Below are positions 35,996-48,447 of a stretch of 64,000 nt of DNA, piece by piece (positions within the stretch are counted from its first letter, which is position 1; every line of letters begins with the position of its first letter). The notes beneath the pieces were generated by a model that worked only from the letters and a program-made list of their open reading frames with translations, made no database searches and had not been told where the DNA came from. The position numbers were made by a program, and so were the translations under genes. This stretch comes from Deltaproteobacteria bacterium (lineage in GTDB: Bacteria > Desulfobacterota > DSM-4660 > Desulfatiglandales > HGW-15): NCBI GenBank assembly GCA_019310525.1, contig JAFDEE010000004.1, positions 8,828 to 72,827 on the forward strand, read 5' to 3'.

Positions 35996-37093
35996 ATGAA
36001 CATCATCATCAGCTTGCTCTTTTCAGTGGTGGCCGTCGTGATACTCGTCCTCATTCCCTGGGTTGGCGTGGGGGCTCTGGATTTACGCCTGCTGTTCGGG
36101 GTTATCGTACCTTATGCGGCCATCCTCACCTTTTTTGTGGGAATCATAATGCGGGTGGTGGGTTGGGCACGATCCCCTGTTCCCTTCAGGATTCCCACCA
36201 CAGCGGGCCAACAATGGAGCTTTCCCTGGATCAAGTCCAACCCCGTGGACAATCCGAGGAACACGAGGGGCGTGGTTCTCCGGATGGCTTTCGAGATTCT
36301 GCTGTTTCGATCCCTTTTCAGGAATACACGCCTCGAATTCAGGCAAGGGCCCAAGATCACCTATGAGTGGGAAAAGTGGCTTTGGCTGGCGGCTCTGGTC
36401 TTCCATTATTCCTTCCTCGTGATTTTCCTCCGGCACCTGCGTTTTTTCCTGGACCCGATTCCGGGATTTGTACATCTGCTTGAAAGTCTCGATGGTTTTC
36501 TCCAGATGGGAGTGGTTCCTCTCAGTGGGCTTGGTGTCCCCGGGGTCTACCTGACTGACATGTTGCTCCTTCTCGCCGTGACTTATCTCTTTCTAAGGAG
36601 GATCTACATTCCCCAGATGCGTTTCATTTCCCTTTCCGCCGACTATTTCCCTCTTTTCCTGATCCTGGCTCTCGGACTCACGGGGATCCTGATGCGGTAT
36701 TTTCTAAGGGTGGATCTTACCGCCGTGAAGGAACTGGCCATGGGCCTTGTCACCTTCAGGCCCAAGACCCCCGAGGGAATCGGTGTGATATTCTATATCC
36801 ACTTTTTCATGCTCTGTGTCCTGATCGCTTATTTCCCTTTCAGCAAGCTCGTGCACATGGCCGGCATCTTCTTGAGCCCCACGAGAAATCTCTCCAACAA
36901 CAGTCGGTTCGTCCGGCACGTCAATCCCTGGAATTATCCCGTCGAGGTGCATACTTATGAAGAATACGAGGAAGAGTTCAGGGATAAAATGATTGAGGCG
37001 GGCCTGCCCGTGGAGAAGATGCCCGAAACACCGGAAGAAGAGGCTGACTCAGCCGAAGAGGCCGGACCAAAAGAAGAAGCAGCAAAGGAGTAG
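35996..37093 (+). CDS. dsrM: DsrM, NarI-like dihaem b membrane subunit
   Basis: 365 aa with multiple TM helices (NarI-like) and an acidic C-terminal tail. First gene of the conserved dsrMKJOP order. Confidence 0.85.
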   Translation: MNIIISLLFSVVAVVILVLIPWVGVGALDLRLLFGVIVPYAAILTFFVGIIMRVVGWARSPVPFRIPTTAGQQWSFPWIKSNPVDNPRNTRGVVLRMAFEILLFRSLFRNTRLEFRQGPKITYEWEKWLWLAALVFHYSFLVIFLRHLRFFLDPIPGFVHLLESLDGFLQMGVVPLSGLGVPGVYLTDMLLLLAVTYLFLRRIYIPQMRFISLSADYFPLFLILALGLTGILMRYFLRVDLTAVKELAMGLVTFRPKTPEGIGVIFYIHFFMLCVLIAYFPFSKLVHMAGIFLSPTRNLSNNSRFVRHVNPWNYPVEVHTYEEYEEEFRDKMIEAGLPVEKMPETPEEEADSAEEAGPKEEAAKE

Positions 37094-37095
37094 AC

Positions 37096-38724
37096 ATGTC
37101 AGACGTCCCAAAACCGGAAGAACTCGCAAGGATAGACCATCGCCCTCCTGAATTGAAAGGGTGGATGGACATGCCCGTGGAGATCAAGCAGGGGATCGCT
37201 TGTTACGGTGGAAAGCCTCAGAATCTGGAATACGTCGGGCTTCCCAATCCCCGGGAATGGTCTCCGTTCGATGAGGACTGGAAACTGCCGGAAAACTGGA
37301 AGGAAATCTTCCTGGAAGGATTGAGAGAACGGCTGGAGCGTTTCAGGTCCCTGAAGGTCTTCATGGATATCTGTGTACGGTGCGGTGCCTGTGCGGACAA
37401 GTGCCACTTCTTCATCGGGGGCGGGGACCCCAAAAACATGCCGGTCCTCAGGGCGGAGCTCCTCCGCTCGATTTACCGCAGGGAGTATACGACTGCCGGC
37501 AAGATCCTCGGTCGTCTCGCGGGGGCGCGGGAAATAACCGTGGATGTCCTGAAGGAGCTCTGGTATTACTTTTTCCAGTGTACCGAGTGCCGCCGCTGTT
37601 CCCTTTTTTGCCCTTACGGAATCGACACGGCGGAAATCACCATCCTGGGAAGGGAGCTGCTGAATCTCCTGGGACTGAATATCGACTGGATTTCAGCACC
37701 AGTGGCCAACTGCTACCGGACGGGAAACCACCTGGGAATCCAGCCCCACGCATACAAGGACATGATTGAGTTCTTCGTGGACGATATCGAGGAGATCACG
37801 GGCGTGCGGGTGGAGCCCAGCTTCAACCGCAAGGGCGCCGAGATTCTCTTCATCACTCCTTCGGGAGACGTCTTCGCCGACCCCGGAACTTATACCTGCA
37901 TGGGTTATCTCATGCTGTTCCACTATCTCCAGGACCTCGGGCTGGATATAACCTGGAGCACCTTTGCCTCTGAAGGGGGAAACTTCGGTTACTTCACCTC
38001 CCATGAGATGGCCAAGAGGCTCAATGCCAAGATGTATGCCGAGGCCAAGCGTCTCGGGGTGAAATGGATCCTGGGCGGAGAGTGCGGGCACATGTGGAGG
38101 GTGATCAACCAGTATATGGATACCTTCAACGGCCCGGCGGATTTCCTGGAGGAACCCGTTTCTCCCATTACCGGCACGAAGTTCGAAAATGCCAAGAGTA
38201 CCAAGATGGTGCACATCGTGGAATTCACGGCGGACCTTATAAAGCATAACAAGCTGAAGCTGGATCCAAGCCGCAACGACAACATCGTCGTTACCTTCCA
38301 CGATTCCTGTAACCCTGCAAGGGGCATGGGGTTCTTAGAAGAACCCAGGTATGTCATCAAGAGTGTCTGCAATCATTTTTACGAGATGCCGGAAAACACT
38401 ATCCGGGAGCAGACCTTTTGCTGCGGCAGCGGGGCCGGATTGAACGCCGGGGAGGACATGGAGCTCCGAATGAGGGGAGGACTTCCGCGGGCAAACGCCG
38501 TCAAACATGTCCATGAAAAACACGGTGTGAACATGCTGGCCTGCATCTGTGCCATCGACCGGGCGGTATTTCCCCCGCTCATGGATTACTGGGTTCCAGG
38601 GGTGAACGTGACCGGTGTGCATGAGCTTGTCGGCAATGCCCTGATCCTTGACGGCGAGCAGGAGAGAACGACCAATTTACGCGGTGAACCACTCCCGGGT
38701 ATGGAGGAAGAAGAGGATGTATGA
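37096..38724 (+). CDS. dsrK: DsrK, HdrD-like catalytic Fe-S subunit
   Basis: 542 aa with two ferredoxin motifs (CVRCGACADKC, CTECRRCSLFCP) and CCG domains (FHDSCNP, FCCGSGAG). Confidence 0.9.
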   Translation: MSDVPKPEELARIDHRPPELKGWMDMPVEIKQGIACYGGKPQNLEYVGLPNPREWSPFDEDWKLPENWKEIFLEGLRERLERFRSLKVFMDICVRCGACADKCHFFIGGGDPKNMPVLRAELLRSIYRREYTTAGKILGRLAGAREITVDVLKELWYYFFQCTECRRCSLFCPYGIDTAEITILGRELLNLLGLNIDWISAPVANCYRTGNHLGIQPHAYKDMIEFFVDDIEEITGVRVEPSFNRKGAEILFITPSGDVFADPGTYTCMGYLMLFHYLQDLGLDITWSTFASEGGNFGYFTSHEMAKRLNAKMYAEAKRLGVKWILGGECGHMWRVINQYMDTFNGPADFLEEPVSPITGTKFENAKSTKMVHIVEFTADLIKHNKLKLDPSRNDNIVVTFHDSCNPARGMGFLEEPRYVIKSVCNHFYEMPENTIREQTFCCGSGAGLNAGEDMELRMRGGLPRANAVKHVHEKHGVNMLACICAIDRAVFPPLMDYWVPGVNVTGVHELVGNALILDGEQERTTNLRGEPLPGMEEEEDV

Positions 38725-39103
38725 CGGAGGCAAAATCATCACCGGTCTGATTATTGGGGTAGGGTTGCTGCTGCTTCCTTTCTGGTACAATGCCGGGAAG
38801 GCGGCCAAGGCACCGGATCCCCGACTGACGGAGAAAGCGAAGCAGGCGAAGATCTGCGTCGCGGAGACATCCTACATGAAGACCTCCCATATGCATCTGC
38901 TGGATCGCTGGAGGAACGAGGCGGTCCGCGATGGGGATCGGTATTATAAGACTGCGGGGGGCCAAGTTTATTACAAGAGCCTCCAGGATACCTGCATGGA
39001 GTGCCATTCCAATAAGAGCAAGTTTTGTGATCAATGTCACAATTTCATGGGGGTCAGCCCCTACTGCTGGGACTGCCATATAGCGCCCAAGGAGAATAAC
39101 TGA
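38717..39103 (+). CDS. dsrJ: DsrJ, periplasmic trihaem cytochrome c
   Basis: The start was set at ATG 38717 (MYDGGKII, TM anchor). Three CxxCH motifs: CMECH, CDQCH and CWDCH. Confidence 0.85.
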   Translation: MYDGGKIITGLIIGVGLLLLPFWYNAGKAAKAPDPRLTEKAKQAKICVAETSYMKTSHMHLLDRWRNEAVRDGDRYYKTAGGQVYYKSLQDTCMECHSNKSKFCDQCHNFMGVSPYCWDCHIAPKENN

Positions 39104-39903
39104 TGGGTATGGACAGAAGACAATTCCTCAAAGTAATGGGTCTCTCCACCGCCCTTGGGCTCGGGGGAAAGGCCGCCTGGGATTTCTTTGCACCTGGCCA
39201 GGCGGAGGCAGCTCTGAAGGAGGCTCCGCTTACCGAAGGCAAGAAATGGGGCATGGTCGTGGACATGAGCAAGATGACCGACCAGGTCCTGGACGAGTGT
39301 ATCGCGGCATGCCACAGGGAACACAATGTTCCTGACCTCGGGAACAGCAAGGAAGAAGTCAAGTGGATCTGGAAAGAGACCTATGAACATACCTTTCCGG
39401 AACAGGAGCACGAATACAGCGTCGAGAAATACAGGCACAAGAATTTTCTCCTGATATGCAACCACTGCACCAACCCCCCCTGCTGCCGGGTGTGTCCCAC
39501 CAAGGCGACATGGAAACGGGAAGACGGTATAGTGATGATGGATCAGCATCGCTGTATCGGTTGCCGTTTCTGTATGGCCGCCTGCCCTTTCGGTGCCAGG
39601 AGCTTCAACTGGGGGGATCCCAGAAAGGCCCCGAAGGAATTAAACCCGGATTTTCCCACTAACCCCCAATACCCGACCCGATCAAAGGGTGTGGTGGAGA
39701 AGTGCACCTTTTGCGCCGAAAGGCTAGCCAAAGGAAAACTGCCGGCCTGTGTGGAGGCCGCCAATCGTATGGGCCCGAATATCTTGACGTTCGGCGACCT
39801 GGACGATCCGGAGTCCGAAGTCCGAAAACTGCTCCGTTCCCATTACACCATTCGGAGAAAACCCGAACTTGGGACAGGCCCCAACGTCTATTATATTGTG
39901 TGA
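39103..39903 (+). CDS. dsrO: DsrO, periplasmic 4Fe-4S ferredoxin-like subunit with Tat signal
   Basis: 266 aa with an RRQFLK twin-arginine signal and multiple CxxCxxCxxxCP clusters. Confidence 0.85.
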   Translation: MGMDRRQFLKVMGLSTALGLGGKAAWDFFAPGQAEAALKEAPLTEGKKWGMVVDMSKMTDQVLDECIAACHREHNVPDLGNSKEEVKWIWKETYEHTFPEQEHEYSVEKYRHKNFLLICNHCTNPPCCRVCPTKATWKREDGIVMMDQHRCIGCRFCMAACPFGARSFNWGDPRKAPKELNPDFPTNPQYPTRSKGVVEKCTFCAERLAKGKLPACVEAANRMGPNILTFGDLDDPESEVRKLLRSHYTIRRKPELGTGPNVYYIV

Positions 39904-39910
39904 GGTGGTT

Positions 39911-41068
39911 ATGCTCGACAAAGCAATCAAGGGAAGTCAGGCATACTGGGGTTGGCTCATTGCCCTGGTCGTACTCATGGGAATAGGTTTCGCGTGTTAT
40001 CTCTACCAGTGGTTCGAGGGATTGCGGATCACCGGAATGAGCCGGGATGTTTCCTGGGGTTTTTATATCGGCCAGCTTACCTATTTCGTGGGGGTGGCCG
40101 CCTCGGGCGTAATGGTGGTTCTGCCCTATTACCTCCACGACTATAAGGCCTTCGGCCGGATCACCATCATGGGGGAATTCCTGGCCGTGGCGGCCATCGT
40201 CATGTGCGGCCTCTTCGTGATGGTGGATCTCGGGTATCTGCCCCGGATGCTCAACATCATGCTCTATCCCAACCCGAAGTCCATCCTTTTTTGGGACATG
40301 ATTGTTCTGAATGTCTATATGCTCCTCAATATCATCATCGGCTGGAATGTATTGAGTGCCGAACGAAAGGGCGTTCCCTATCAGAAATGGATTAAGGTCC
40401 TTATCTATATTTCTATTCCCTGGGCATTCAGCATCCATACCGTGACGGCTTTTCTCTATGCCGGGCTGCCGGGCCGACATTACTGGCTGACGGCCATCAT
40501 GGCGGCGCGTTTCCTGAGTTCCGCCTTCTGCTCGGGACCCGCCCTCCTGATCCTCTTATGCCTGATCGTGAAAAAGTTCACCAAGTTCGATCCTGGAAAG
40601 GAACAGATCCGGACCCTGGGCGGCATTGTCGCCTATGCCATGATCATCAACGTATTCTTCTTTTTCCTCGAGCTTTTCACCGCCTTTTACAGCCAAATCC
40701 CGGGACATATGCATCCCATCCAGTACCTTTTCGTCGGCCTGGAAGGCCATAACCGGCTGGCCCCGTGGATGTGGACCGCGGCCTTTTTCGCCCTGGTGGC
40801 TTTGATCCTTTTGATCGTCCCCGCGACCCGAAGGAGGCCCGATGTTCTGGCGGTGGCCTGTGTCGCGGTCATCATCTCCACCTGGATCGATAAGGGATTC
40901 GGCTTGGTGCCGGGAGGTTTTATCCCCAATCCTTTCGAAAGGGTCACCGAGTACTGGCCCACGGTGCCTGAGATCTTTATCTCAGTAGGAATCTGGGCCA
41001 CCGGTTTCTTTATCCTGACCGTGCTTTACAAGGTGGCCGTCTCCGTGAAGGAAGAGGTCGCAGCCTGA
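39911..41068 (+). CDS. dsrP: DsrP, NrfD/PsrC-like integral membrane subunit
   Basis: The start was set at ATG 39911 (MLDKAIKG). About 10 TM helices; last gene of the dsrMKJOP order. Confidence 0.85.
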   Translation: MLDKAIKGSQAYWGWLIALVVLMGIGFACYLYQWFEGLRITGMSRDVSWGFYIGQLTYFVGVAASGVMVVLPYYLHDYKAFGRITIMGEFLAVAAIVMCGLFVMVDLGYLPRMLNIMLYPNPKSILFWDMIVLNVYMLLNIIIGWNVLSAERKGVPYQKWIKVLIYISIPWAFSIHTVTAFLYAGLPGRHYWLTAIMAARFLSSAFCSGPALLILLCLIVKKFTKFDPGKEQIRTLGGIVAYAMIINVFFFFLELFTAFYSQIPGHMHPIQYLFVGLEGHNRLAPWMWTAAFFALVALILLIVPATRRRPDVLAVACVAVIISTWIDKGFGLVPGGFIPNPFERVTEYWPTVPEIFISVGIWATGFFILTVLYKVAVSVKEEVAA

Positions 41069-45106: not shown

Positions 45107-45135
45107 TTGACAGAGCCCAAACAATTCAATATATA
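45107..45135 (+). promoter_or_regulatory. sigma70-type promoter (TTGACA-17-TATATA) for the molybdopterin oxidoreductase operon
   Basis: Hexamers read directly, about 75 nt upstream of ATG 45211. Confidence 0.45.
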
Positions 45136-45210: not shown

Positions 45211-47640
45211 ATGAAGGATAAAAAACGGCATATCGTTCGTACCACCACCTGGTCCGCAGGACCTGGGTGTCACGGGGGATGCGGTGTTTTGGCCCATGTG
45301 GAAGACGGGAAGCTGATCAAGATCGAGGGGGATCCGGAGCATCCCTGGAACCAGGGGCGGCTTTGCGCCCGGGTCCTTGCCATGACCCAATACATTGAGC
45401 ATCCCAAGCGCCTGCGCCGTCCCCTCAAGCGAGCGGGAAAACGGGGGGAAGACCGGTGGGAGGAAATCTCCTGGGAAGAGGCCTTTGATCTCATCGAGAA
45501 GCGGATGAAAGCCATACGGAAGGAGTTTGGGCCCGAAAGTGTGATCTTTTCCATGGGGACGGGCAGGGATATCGGCCCCTGGATCTGCCTCCTGGCCTAT
45601 GCTTACGGGAGCCCCAATGTCATGTTCGCCCTGAGCGGCAACGCCTGTTACAGCCCCAGGATCGCCGCCCTGGATACCTTTCAGGGAGATTACTGCGTGT
45701 TCGATGCAGGCCAGTGGTTCCCGGAGCGTTACGAGGATCCACGCTTCGAGGTGCCGGAGTGCATGATCGTATGGGGATACAATATCCCGGCCACCTGCCC
45801 CGATAATCTCTTCGGCCACTGGATCATCGACCTGATGAAACGGGGCACCAAAATCATATCCGTGGATCCCAGGCTTTCCTGGTTCGCTTCTCGTGCGAAG
45901 TACTGGCTCCAGTTGAGGCCGGGCACCGATGCGGCCCTTGCAATGGGTATGCTCAAAGTCATCCTGGACGAGGACCTGTTCGACCATGAATTCCTCGAAA
46001 AGTGGACCAACGGTGCCCATCTTTTGCGGGAAGACACGGGTAGGCTTTTGAGGGAAAGCGATTTGTGCACCGACGGCAAGGAGGGGAATTTCGTTGTCTG
46101 GGATGAAAAGGGAGGACGGCCCGCTGTCTGGGATACGAAGGAACTCCGGTACGATCCGGTGGATGTGGAGCCGGCCCTTTCAGGGAGATGGGAGGTGGCC
46201 CTGGCGGATGGCCGAAAGGTGCCCTGCCGCACGGTCTGGGACGCGTTCAGGGCCGAGGTGGACAGATACCCCCTGGAGGAGGTGGAGAGAATCACCAGGG
46301 TCCCGGCCGAATTGATCGCAAAAGCCGCCCGCTTTTATGCACGGAGCAAGCCGGCCTCCATACAGTGGGGGGTTCCCATTGATATGACTCCCGGGATCAC
46401 CCCCCTGTGTCACGCCATTGCCTCCCTCTGGGCCCTTACCGGGAACCTGGATGTGCCGGGCGGAAACGTGATCTCCCGGTTCGCCTTCGATGCCGTGGCC
46501 TATGCCCTTCCCGGCGCAGAAGGGGTTATTCGTTTGAAAGACAAGGAACAGGACGAGCCCAGGATCGGCGCCGATCGTTACGGCCCATTCAATCGCTTCA
46601 TCTGGCGGACCCAGACGGATCTGACCCTGGAACAGATTTTCACGGAAAAGCCTTATCCCATAAAGGGTCTCTGGATTCAGACCTGCAATCCTCTCGGCGG
46701 TATCGGTATGGATCCCAGGCGCTGGCGCGATGCACTCGAAAAGGTGGAGTTCATCGTGGCGGTGGACCTTTTCATGACACCCACGACCCAGTATGCGGAC
46801 GTGGTCCTGCCTGCGGCCACCTTCCTGGAAAAGGACGGAGTTCGTACCTGGTGGATACCCCTCCAGAGTATCAACAGGGCCGTGAGGGTGGACGAATGCC
46901 GGCCCGACGTGGAAATCAACTTCGAGTTGGCCCGGCGGTTCGATCCGGATCTCAAGTGGAAGAATATTCATGAGCTTTTCGACGATATTATCCGTCCCTC
47001 TGGCCTGACCTTCCGTGAACTTCAGGAGAAGGGTTGGGTTTTTCCTCCCGAGGACCACCCGAGCCACCCCTATCGCCGCCACGAGAGGGGGCTCCTTCGA
47101 GCCGACCGGAAGCCCGGGTTTCAGACCCCCACGGGCAGGTTCGAGCTATATTCCACCATCCGGGAAGAGTGGGGCCTCAAGCCCCTGCCCCATCACGAGG
47201 AACCTCCCTTCACCCCCGTGAGCAGGCCCGATCTTGCCAGAGACTATCCGTTGATCCTCTCCACCGGGAGACGTTCTCCGGCCTTTTTTCACTCCGAGCA
47301 CCGGATGATACCGTGGCTCCGGGCCATTGATCCGGATCCCGTGGTGGAGATCCACCCCGATACCGCCACAGAGCATGGGATCGGGAACGGCGAATGGGTG
47401 TGGGTGGAAAATTGGCAGGGACGAGCCAAACTCAAGGCCAAGGTGAGCCCCATCGTCCCCCGCTGGATGGTCATGGCGGCACACGGCTGGTGGTTCCCCG
47501 AGCGGAAGGGGGCGGAACCGGAGCTTTACGGCGTGTGGGAACCCAATATCAATTTGCTCCTTCCCATGGGTGCCCAGGGAAAAGACGGCCTGGGAGCCCC
47601 GGTCAAACATTCCATGTGCAGGATATACAAAGCGGATTAA
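45211..47640 (+). CDS. cytoplasmic Mo/W-bis(pyranopterin guanine dinucleotide) oxidoreductase catalytic subunit, substrate unknown
   Basis: 809 aa with no Tat signal. The N-terminal Fe-S region is GPGCHGGCGV..(27)..C. The layout is typical of the molybdopterin oxidoreductase and dinucleotide-binding domains. Confidence 0.85.
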   Translation: MKDKKRHIVRTTTWSAGPGCHGGCGVLAHVEDGKLIKIEGDPEHPWNQGRLCARVLAMTQYIEHPKRLRRPLKRAGKRGEDRWEEISWEEAFDLIEKRMKAIRKEFGPESVIFSMGTGRDIGPWICLLAYAYGSPNVMFALSGNACYSPRIAALDTFQGDYCVFDAGQWFPERYEDPRFEVPECMIVWGYNIPATCPDNLFGHWIIDLMKRGTKIISVDPRLSWFASRAKYWLQLRPGTDAALAMGMLKVILDEDLFDHEFLEKWTNGAHLLREDTGRLLRESDLCTDGKEGNFVVWDEKGGRPAVWDTKELRYDPVDVEPALSGRWEVALADGRKVPCRTVWDAFRAEVDRYPLEEVERITRVPAELIAKAARFYARSKPASIQWGVPIDMTPGITPLCHAIASLWALTGNLDVPGGNVISRFAFDAVAYALPGAEGVIRLKDKEQDEPRIGADRYGPFNRFIWRTQTDLTLEQIFTEKPYPIKGLWIQTCNPLGGIGMDPRRWRDALEKVEFIVAVDLFMTPTTQYADVVLPAATFLEKDGVRTWWIPLQSINRAVRVDECRPDVEINFELARRFDPDLKWKNIHELFDDIIRPSGLTFRELQEKGWVFPPEDHPSHPYRRHERGLLRADRKPGFQTPTGRFELYSTIREEWGLKPLPHHEEPPFTPVSRPDLARDYPLILSTGRRSPAFFHSEHRMIPWLRAIDPDPVVEIHPDTATEHGIGNGEWVWVENWQGRAKLKAKVSPIVPRWMVMAAHGWWFPERKGAEPELYGVWEPNINLLLPMGAQGKDGLGAPVKHSMCRIYKAD

Positions 47641-47657
47641 GACACAGGGAGAAAGTC

Positions 47658-47999
47658 ATGGCCGAGAAATCCCAATACGGACTGCTGATAAACTATGAAT
47701 ATTGTACGGGTTGTCATACCTGCGTGGTGGCCTGTTCCCAGGAATACCGCTGGCCGGCCGGCATGTCTGGGATGAGGGTCCTCGAGGTGGTGGAAAACCT
47801 GCCCAAGGACAAGGCATACCTTGCCTTCCTCCCTTTTCCGACGGAACTTTGCATCCTTTGCAGACCCAGGACTAAGAAAGGTCTGGAGCCGGCCTGTGTA
47901 AAACACTGCATGGCGTCATGCATAAAATACGGAACGATCGAGGAACTGGCCGAAGAGATGAAGGGAAAGCCCAGAATGGTCTTATGGAAACCAAGATAA
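47658..47999 (+). CDS. small ferredoxin-like 4Fe-4S protein (truncated DmsB-type partner)
   Basis: 113 aa from ATG 47658, 17 nt after the catalytic subunit stop. Cys motifs: CTGCHTCVVAC and CILC..(11)..CVKHCMASC. Confidence 0.7.
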   Translation: MAEKSQYGLLINYEYCTGCHTCVVACSQEYRWPAGMSGMRVLEVVENLPKDKAYLAFLPFPTELCILCRPRTKKGLEPACVKHCMASCIKYGTIEELAEEMKGKPRMVLWKPR

Positions 48000-48136
48000 G
48001 GAAGGCTCGGAGGGGACCTCCCGGTGAAGCGCTTTTGTCCGAGGGCGGGTCCCTTCCGGGTTCTACTCAGGAGTTGGGCAGAAAAGCCCGGGAGACACCT
48101 GGCTTTCCTCTCTCCCGGCGGACATCCCGGAATAGA

Positions 48137-48447
48137 GAGACCTTTGAAGAACGTTCAATTTTGTTCAAGGTCAAGGAAGACGAAAATTTTAACCATCCCG
48201 CTTTAGAATGCCAAGCGGGACAGGCATCTATACATTGAAGTATTTCGAGGATTCAGATTCCCCGGAGGCAGCGGAAAGCAGGGGCTGACATTTTCTCCGG
48301 AGCGGGCGTATTTCGGCCCTGAATCAGGATAGATGAAGGAACGAAATACGCAGGCAGGGCCTGTCCGCCGCTGTCTGGCGGGCTTGTCACGCCGTAGCCA
48401 TAGCGAAGGCGGAAGATTGGCAAAAGGGGGCGTTTTTCAGAGGTCTC
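48137..48447. mobile_element. expanded MITE copy (311 bp) carrying about 30 bp and 150 bp of extra internal sequence
   Basis: Same ends as the family (GAGACCTTTGAAGAACG ... CGTTTTTCAGAGGTCTC). The flanks ATAGA/AGAGA match at 4 of 5 positions. The internal module 48360-48420 recurs, reverse-complemented, at 62.56-62.62 kb. Confidence 0.7.

Follow-up and report, generated by a model that had tools for sequence, protein, structure and literature searches.

Maini Rekdal et al. (PMC7028382) defined the molybdenum-dependent catechol dehydroxylases as a clade that neighbors acetylene hydratase. In the Gordonibacter type of these enzymes, the catalytic subunit is smaller, has no twin-arginine (Tat) signal, and is encoded beside a small 4Fe-4S protein, often together with an MFS transporter. 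The class is described in that paper and in PMC11887054 and PMC11574389, and in later papers its members are called two-subunit cytoplasmic enzymes. Among them, Gp Hcdh was purified with equimolar molybdenum and is active with reduced methyl viologen, and a review states that the canonical Fe-S motif is absent from the Gordonibacter catalytic subunits. Here we describe a two-gene cassette (45211-47999) in a 64,000-nucleotide stretch of DNA from a Deltaproteobacteria bacterium of the Desulfatiglandales (assembly GCA_019310525.1, contig JAFDEE010000004.1, positions 8,828 to 72,827, forward strand). This whole stretch is referred to as the window, and coordinates without a contig or locus label are positions within it.

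The first gene (45211..47640, forward strand) encodes an 809-residue catalytic (α) subunit, identified from its open reading frame, Pfam domains, homology, AlphaFold2 model and trees as a molybdenum- or tungsten-bis(pyranopterin guanine dinucleotide) (Mo/W-bisPGD) enzyme of the acetylene hydratase/catechol dehydroxylase clade, without a signal peptide. The second (47658..47999, forward strand) encodes a 113-residue iron-sulfur (β) subunit. We consider it reasonably probable that this two-gene operon encodes a soluble cytoplasmic α-β reductase of the Gordonibacter-type clade, which dehydroxylates a hydroxylated aromatic acid. A redox role is supported by the ferredoxin partner, the gene for which is kept directly downstream in 64 of the 66 orthologous loci for which the sequence extends far enough. 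The cassette is a new, unusually widespread and uncharacterised member of a known enzyme class.

Relationship to known dehydroxylases

Homologues of the large subunit number in the thousands in a large protein collection, and the best 120 are all 72-90% identical to it. In a library clustered at 50% identity, the top representative scores 1439 bits (70% identity) and the next scores 788 bits (49%). This drop in score, together with the identities of the homologues, places the protein in a discrete, tightly conserved family. A Gordonibacter pamelaeae enzyme is 51% identical to the large subunit over residues 2-274 and 41% over residues 343-806, and the small subunit shares 45% identity (E 3e-30) and all eight Cys with a 111-residue Gordonibacter 4Fe-4S protein. 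A Gordonibacter 4Fe-4S protein of this length (P0284) is listed in the 90% cluster of a 788-residue catalytic subunit (P0126), which is probably a clustering artefact, for example from a fused or overlapping gene call.

The initial annotation of the window had suggested placing the enzyme in a phylogeny of the dimethyl sulfoxide (DMSO) reductase superfamily. Trees were made with FastTree (143 sequences) and with IQ-TREE (LG+C20 PMSF, 52 sequences). In both, all proteins carrying the PGCH motif, including the G. pamelaeae enzyme, form one clade with 99-100% support. Within it, this family and a Lachnospiraceae protein (99% support) are sister to the Gordonibacter-containing group. At the level of the clade, we are confident that the enzyme belongs with the Gordonibacter-type catechol dehydroxylases. 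As placed by the trees, the family is not orthologous to any characterised enzyme, and is an uncharacterised environmental sister branch.

The features common to this family and the Gordonibacter-type enzymes (Dodh, Cldh/(-)-Eddh, Gp Hcdh, Gs Vadh, Eadh1/2; PMC7028382, PMC11585353, PMC11887054, 10.1101/2025.01.17.632430) are numerous. Both are soluble two-subunit enzymes with no Tat signal and no membrane anchor. Both have a partner of about 110 residues with the same eight Cys, an (S/T)xPGCHxxC...C motif without the canonical first Cys, and the metal-ligand motif SGxxCYxPR. In the published alignments Dodh and Cldh read W-T/S-G-P-G-C-H-x-G-C ... L-C-x-R-C, which is the pattern seen here. The alignment in the 2020 eLife paper (PMC7028382) also includes a sequence from Desulfobacula toluolica Tol2 that is an orthologue of the present protein, complete with the 67-residue insert discussed below; beyond this uncharacterised sequence, nothing was found in the literature on this specific family.

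There are also differences. The Gordonibacter-type enzymes come from gut Coriobacteriia, whereas this family comes from sediment anaerobes and archaea, and it has a longer spacing between the Ser and the first Cys of the motif, as well as the β-rich insert. The present copy has Val at the last position of LCxRC. The adjacent LuxR/LysR regulator or MFS gene of the Gordonibacter type is not found in this window, but this trait belongs to the context and is not a property of the enzyme. The Eggerthella-type dehydroxylases (Dadh, Cadh, Hcdh) are like the present enzyme in proposed chemistry and in belonging to the wider acetylene-hydratase-related group (PMC7028382), but they are three-subunit, Tat-exported and membrane-anchored, with catalytic subunits of about 1000-1200 residues that carry the canonical Fe-S motif.

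The initial annotation had described a cytoplasmic enzyme with a three-Cys cluster motif, a two-cluster partner and no anchor, akin to acetylene hydratase. All of this stands, although it had missed the known Gordonibacter-type class.

The catalytic subunit and its metal site

The open reading frame of the large subunit starts with ATG, which is the first start codon past the upstream stop, and a ribosome-binding site, GGAGGAG, is found 6 nt upstream of it. An upstream in-frame start is impossible. The N-terminus, MKDKKRHIVRTTTWSAGPGCHGGCG..., contains neither a twin-arginine motif nor a hydrophobic stretch, in agreement with the earlier statement that the 809-residue subunit lacks a twin-arginine signal, and the protein is predicted to be cytoplasmic. 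Pfam matches are Molybdop_Fe4S4 (residues 12-63), Molybdopterin (67-575) and Molydop_binding (681-762). The AlphaFold2 model is confident, with a predicted local distance difference test (pLDDT) score of 93.8. A β-rich insert of 67 residues (residues 276-342; 46036..46236, forward strand) is seen both in the alignments and in the model. All 20 family rows have it, but so do some four-Cys relatives, and it is therefore not unique to the family. It is missing from acetylene hydratase and from the Gordonibacter-type enzymes.

The closest solved structure is acetylene hydratase from Pelobacter acetylenicus (2e7z), whether judged by sequence (phmmer E 4e-79, 26% identity), by profile (E 6e-203, compared to 3e-151 for polysulfide reductase and 3.7e-58 for pyrogallol transhydroxylase) or by fold (best Foldseek match, template modelling (TM) score 0.77/0.86). 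Both proteins are cytoplasmic and have the N-terminal cluster domain in the same place. The predicted metal ligand is Cys146 (codon 45646..45648, forward strand), in the motif SGNACYSPR. This column is Cys in 79 of 80 aligned sequences, and the profile alignment pairs Cys146 with the tungsten ligand Cys141 (chain residue 138 of 2e7z). The α subunit is therefore predicted to bind Mo- or W-bisPGD via Cys146. Of the four cluster ligands of acetylene hydratase, three are matched in the alignments by C20, C24 and C52, and the first is matched by Gly17 in the pairwise alignment. His21 takes the place of the catalytic Asp13, and Arg54 that of Lys48. Acetylene hydratase differs in having four Cys ligands, the Asp at the position of His21, no partner and a non-redox reaction.

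These differences bear on whether the present enzyme could be a non-redox hydratase like acetylene hydratase, with Fe-S centres that merely tune the metal. The fold match and the Cys metal ligand found in both would fit such an enzyme. We nevertheless regard it as very improbable, because the catalytic Asp13 is replaced by His in 184 of 185 family sequences, because acetylene hydratase is a monomer whereas a dedicated two-cluster partner is retained in nearly all loci here, and because the family is nearer to the proven reductases (41-51% identity) than to acetylene hydratase.

Of the two relatives named in the initial annotation, acetylene hydratase is indeed the best match in the PDB, while pyrogallol transhydroxylase is distant. 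Soluble α-β molybdenum ring hydroxylases do exist, an example being the transhydroxylase of Pelobacter acidigallici (PDB 4v4c), which is among the profile matches; and the host appears to degrade aromatics (see below). An oxidative anaerobic ring hydroxylase or transhydroxylase, comparable to resorcinol hydroxylase or pyrogallol transhydroxylase and with the small subunit carrying electrons away, could accommodate both facts. Pyrogallol transhydroxylase has a Ser metal ligand, no cluster in the α subunit and a three-cluster β subunit. Here there are three conserved cluster Cys in α, a Cys metal ligand and a two-cluster β subunit, and the profile match is remote in comparison with that to acetylene hydratase, so an oxidative enzyme of this kind is quite unlikely.

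The second-best profile match of the α subunit is to the polysulfide and thiosulfate reductases PsrABC/PhsABC (2vpw), and the small subunit aligns to parts of PsrB. The Psr system has Tat export, a four-cluster β subunit and an NrfD-type anchor, none of which is present here. The initial annotation had named formate, thiosulfate and polysulfide enzymes as the contrary case. Orthology to any of PhsA/PsrA, Fdh, DmsA and the type II enzymes was considered and rejected, as none of the NCBIfam scores comes near its curated cut-off (the PhsA model gives 265.7 bits where 694 are required).

A candidate sigma-70 promoter (TTGACA-17 nt-TATATA; 45107..45135, forward strand) lies about 75 nt before the start codon. 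It was read from the sequence, is weak evidence, and was omitted by a consensus promoter scan, the second hexamer being without its final T.

The three-cysteine iron-sulfur site

The cluster motif is G17-x2-C20-x3-C24-x27-C52. The initial annotation had given exactly this spacing, with three Cys only and no NarG-like His, and no His is present at position -4 of the motif. Codons 13-24 (45247..45282, forward strand) encode T13, the inserted residues W14-S15-A16-G17, and then P-G-C20-H21-G-G-C24, as defined by the alignment. Codons 52-55 (45364..45375, forward strand) encode C52-A-R-V55, with C52 as the third cluster ligand in the alignments; in many relatives the position of Val55 is an additional Cys. 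The string TWSAGPGCHGGC is found in 102 of 122 close homologues, and among 185 family sequences Ser15 and Arg54 are invariant while His21 is present in 184. Given this recurrence and the residues fixed in the family, the three-Cys motif is not a chance feature.

The column of T13 is Cys in 44 of 44 four-Cys relatives. In the PGCH clade, the stretch from this column to the second Cys is longer by four or five residues, W-S-(A)-x, and the old first position is mostly Ala, Val or Thr, with a few members keeping Cys at or next to it. The presumed ancestral first Cys is shown by this alignment to have been displaced by the W-S-A-G insertion and replaced by Thr13.

A fourth ligand may come from elsewhere. 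Many members of the clade have a Cys three residues past C52 (L-C-x-R-C), and in these relatives Cys55 could be a relocated cluster ligand. Across the 185 family sequences, position 55 is Ala in 85, Cys in 66 and Val in 31. Such a relocated Cys (C52-x2-C55) is ruled out as an explanation for the present copy, which has Val55. Within one orthologous group, two thirds of the sequences thus have three Cys and one third have four. Judged by its residues, this copy is truly a three-Cys site, and the fourth Cys is dispensable within the family.

The cluster may then be a [3Fe-4S] cluster, or a [4Fe-4S] cluster with Ser15 or water as fourth ligand. The best candidate for a ligand other than Cys is the invariant Ser15. 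The residue here carries a hydroxyl (Ser or Thr) in 15 of 16 clade rows as well as in all 185 family sequences. It is four residues before the first Cys in the Gordonibacter-type enzymes (S/T-x3-C) and five before it in this family (S-x4-C). In NarG-type H-x3-C-x3-C sites, a His ligand is found at the four-residue spacing.

P0129 and P0163 are representative proteins inside the PGCH clade. P0129 reads SAPGDHPTGAG ... ALPIRML, in which all three remaining cluster Cys are replaced, and the first Fe-S center appears from this to have been lost altogether in one lineage inside the clade.

The small iron-sulfur subunit

The gene for the small subunit starts 17 nt past the stop codon of the large subunit, with GGGAGAAAG upstream. 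The protein has eight invariant Cys (C16, C19, C22, C26, C65, C68, C80 and C84), enough for a predicted two [4Fe-4S] clusters, and a ninth, C88, that is not conserved. This is in line with the earlier description of a partner far shorter than four-cluster subunits, with Cys for about two clusters. Pfam and NCBIfam searches gave weak matches to 4Fe-4S ferredoxin models, and the DmsB-, TtrB- and NarH-type models were matched at their ends only. In the alignment with PsrB, residues 6-44 fall on PsrB 3-41, containing Cys group I, and residues 64-97 fall on PsrB 115-148, containing Cys group IV. The same picture of groups I and IV is obtained with the β subunits of perchlorate reductase and ethylbenzene dehydrogenase. 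The AlphaFold2 model is of moderate quality (pLDDT 70.8), and its best fold matches are PsrB (E 4.8e-3) and FdnH, both weak. These agree with the sequence alignment and add nothing to it.

In the structures of formate dehydrogenase-N and related enzymes, Cys groups I and IV form the two clusters of a ferredoxin-like half, through which the β subunit docks on its catalytic partner, and groups II and III belong to the half that faces the membrane anchor. As aligned, the small subunit is the proximal half alone of a four-cluster PsrB/DmsB-type subunit, with Cys groups I and IV only. This is consistent with the lack of an anchor. As had been noted before, the small-subunit gene is not followed by one for an anchor, of the NrfD type or any other. 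The window contains a single NrfD gene, dsrP, and this is part of a complete dsrMKJOP cluster (35996-41068) that lies 4 kb upstream of the cassette.

Two open reading frames overlap the small-subunit gene or its 3' flank, one of 106 residues (47918-48238, forward strand) with no Pfam match and one of 89 residues (47637-47906, reverse strand). They are most likely not genes.

Distribution and gene neighborhood

The distribution of the cassette was surveyed in about 185,000 species genomes, using one genome per species. A relative is encoded in 287 stretches, of which the best 80 are 63-89% identical. Carriers among these 80 are Thermodesulfobacteriota (Desulfobacteraceae, Desulfatiglandales, Syntrophorhabdaceae and Geobacter), Chloroflexota (Dehalococcoidia and Anaerolineae), Acidobacteriota/Aminicenantes, Bacillota, Thermotogota, Bacteroidota and five bins of Bathyarchaeia.

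In a tree of 72 orthologues, the Bathyarchaeia make up a single clade that lies within Chloroflexota and Aminicenantes sequences, one sequence from Prolixibacteraceae groups with the Desulfobacterales, and Chloroflexota appear in at least four places. Within the phylum of the host, an orthologue is present in 9 of 401 sampled genomes, and the orthologues in genomes of the same family (62-70% identity) are no more alike than distant ones. The mixing in the tree, the patchy occurrence and the lack of a kinship signal in the identities together indicate repeated horizontal transfer under strong purifying selection. The five bins labelled as Bathyarchaeia (L067, L068, L069, L074 and L076) carry the cassette at 70-72% identity, which suggests one transfer from a bacterium to an archaeon, if the binning is right.

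In the window, the cassette has an endonuclease III-like gene upstream, and a miniature inverted-repeat transposable element (MITE) and hutU downstream. The MITE-like repeat (48137-48447) directly follows the small-subunit gene, between the cassette and hutU, where synteny with the relatives ends. The closest relative (89% identical) has IclR, a 722-residue paralogous Mo enzyme and a 153-residue ferredoxin upstream (L002:3185-6963, the same as L033). None of these is found upstream in the window, so the neighborhood has been rearranged even between close relatives.

Genomic context was considered as a guide to the substrate and was rejected as a decisive one: the first nine loci hinted at IclR, MFS or TRAP genes, and in the 71 species-representative loci IclR was found in 3. 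No neighbor family occurs in more than nine of these 71 loci, except for the partner ferredoxin. There are individual loci with genes of the type associated with aromatic acids, namely IclR and MFS in Desulfonema magnum, IclR with TRAP and an AMP-forming ligase, TRAP with URO-D, B12-binding proteins, MarR, and genes of the aryl-CoA ligase type. The two-gene cassette is self-contained, tight and horizontally spread, without conserved neighbors.

A cassette that travels alone among such varied neighbors, which also include CMD/AhpD-like, hemerythrin, catalase and GNAT genes as well as MarR, might encode a reductase whose substrate is not aromatic, for example an S- or N-oxide, an oxyanion or a compound with a hydroxyl beside a carbonyl. 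It would work as a stand-alone detoxification or scavenging module on cytoplasmic ferredoxin. Conservation across many phyla suggests one common small substrate, and the class already holds a dehydroxylase for non-catechol substrates (corticoids). However, all the characterised members of the supported clade act on aromatic hydroxyls, and the profile scores are far from those of DMSO, trimethylamine N-oxide, biotin-sulfoxide and oxyanion reductases. The carriers are typically anaerobes of aromatic-rich sediments, and the host has BamA. We consider a non-aromatic substrate unlikely.

The host genome

BamA (6-oxocyclohex-1-ene-1-carbonyl-CoA hydrolase) is the ring-cleaving hydrolase that serves as a marker of the benzoyl-CoA pathway. 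The host genome is 3.78 Mb in size and 97% complete, and its BamA (G000:C10:15524-16603) scores 540 bits against a curated cut-off of 464. There are also five UbiD-family genes, on contigs C11, C85 and C146, of which three are clustered on C85. From BamA and the UbiD-family genes, the host is likely to be an aromatic-degrading sulfate reducer.

The genome encodes at least six further cytoplasmic Mo/W paralogues of the acetylene hydratase/dehydroxylase kind, of 682-717 residues, two of them in tandem. They are at C117 62552-64456 and 65543-67576, C44 8650-10719, C45 7294-9225, C12 25825-27852 and C146 16717-18642. Their N-terminal motifs are four-Cys or other, the PGCH type being found in the copy in the window only, and the ferredoxin partners seen at the inspected flanks are of four-cluster size (152-173 residues; second C117 copy and C45). 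The C12 and C146 paralogues (L011:1492-3612, reverse strand, and L013:727-2793, forward strand) have the degenerate motifs HCSRMDHGGC and TCHLCSGGRP, which are neither four-Cys nor PGCH. The C146 paralogue is just downstream of a UbiD-family gene (C146:15520-16110).

Proposed function

For the reaction of the α-β enzyme itself, we lean towards aryl dehydroxylation. Electrons would pass from a soluble low-potential donor to the two clusters of the β subunit, from there to the three-Cys cluster of the α subunit, and finally to the metal. At the metal, a catechol-type aromatic acid would lose a hydroxyl group in a reduction with two electrons and two protons, and His21 would probably relay the protons. 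The dehydroxylated acid could enter the benzoyl-CoA pathway of the host, or the reaction could act as an electron sink.

Several observations weigh against an aromatic acid dehydroxylase. The family of 63-89% identical proteins is uncharacterised, and it is sister to the characterised enzymes at 41-51% identity, not nested among them. Substrate specificity is high in this class, and at least one relative dehydroxylates corticoids, which are not catechols. The window has no regulator, transporter or aromatic-pathway gene adjacent to the cassette. Elsewhere the gene family seen most often upstream is aldehyde dehydrogenase (6 of 58 loci, every one in a related Desulfatiglans-like genome), and short-chain dehydrogenases and MarR follow with three each; as the count for IclR also illustrates, the neighbors are not conserved. 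The initial annotation had held that the substrate could not be guessed from context. For the specific substrate this is borne out, but it was too pessimistic with regard to the type of reaction.

Almost all work on catechol dehydroxylases to date has been done on gut Coriobacteriia. The soluble form described here occurs as a mobile and tightly conserved module in sulfate reducers, Dehalococcoidia, Anaerolineae, Acidobacteriota/Aminicenantes and Bathyarchaeia, and its cultured carriers include Desulfobacula toluolica Tol2 and Desulfonema magnum. If it does dehydroxylate aromatic acids, the cassette would mark a route by which lignin-, tannin- and humic-derived polyphenols are processed in anoxic sediments before ring reduction.

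The family is also a natural experiment on the first Fe-S center of Mo/W-bisPGD enzymes. A more speculative proposal, which we put forward tentatively and hold to be rather doubtful, is that the three-Cys site is a natural functional Fe-S center with a new type of ligation, whether as [3Fe-4S] or as [4Fe-4S] with Ser15 for its fourth ligand. It would serve as the electron relay of a widespread, horizontally mobile enzyme that strips hydroxyl groups from lignin- and tannin-derived catechols in sediment anaerobes, including Bathyarchaeia, Dehalococcoidia and sulfate reducers. If this is true, the cassette would serve as a marker gene for a step in anoxic polyphenol turnover that has gone unrecognised.

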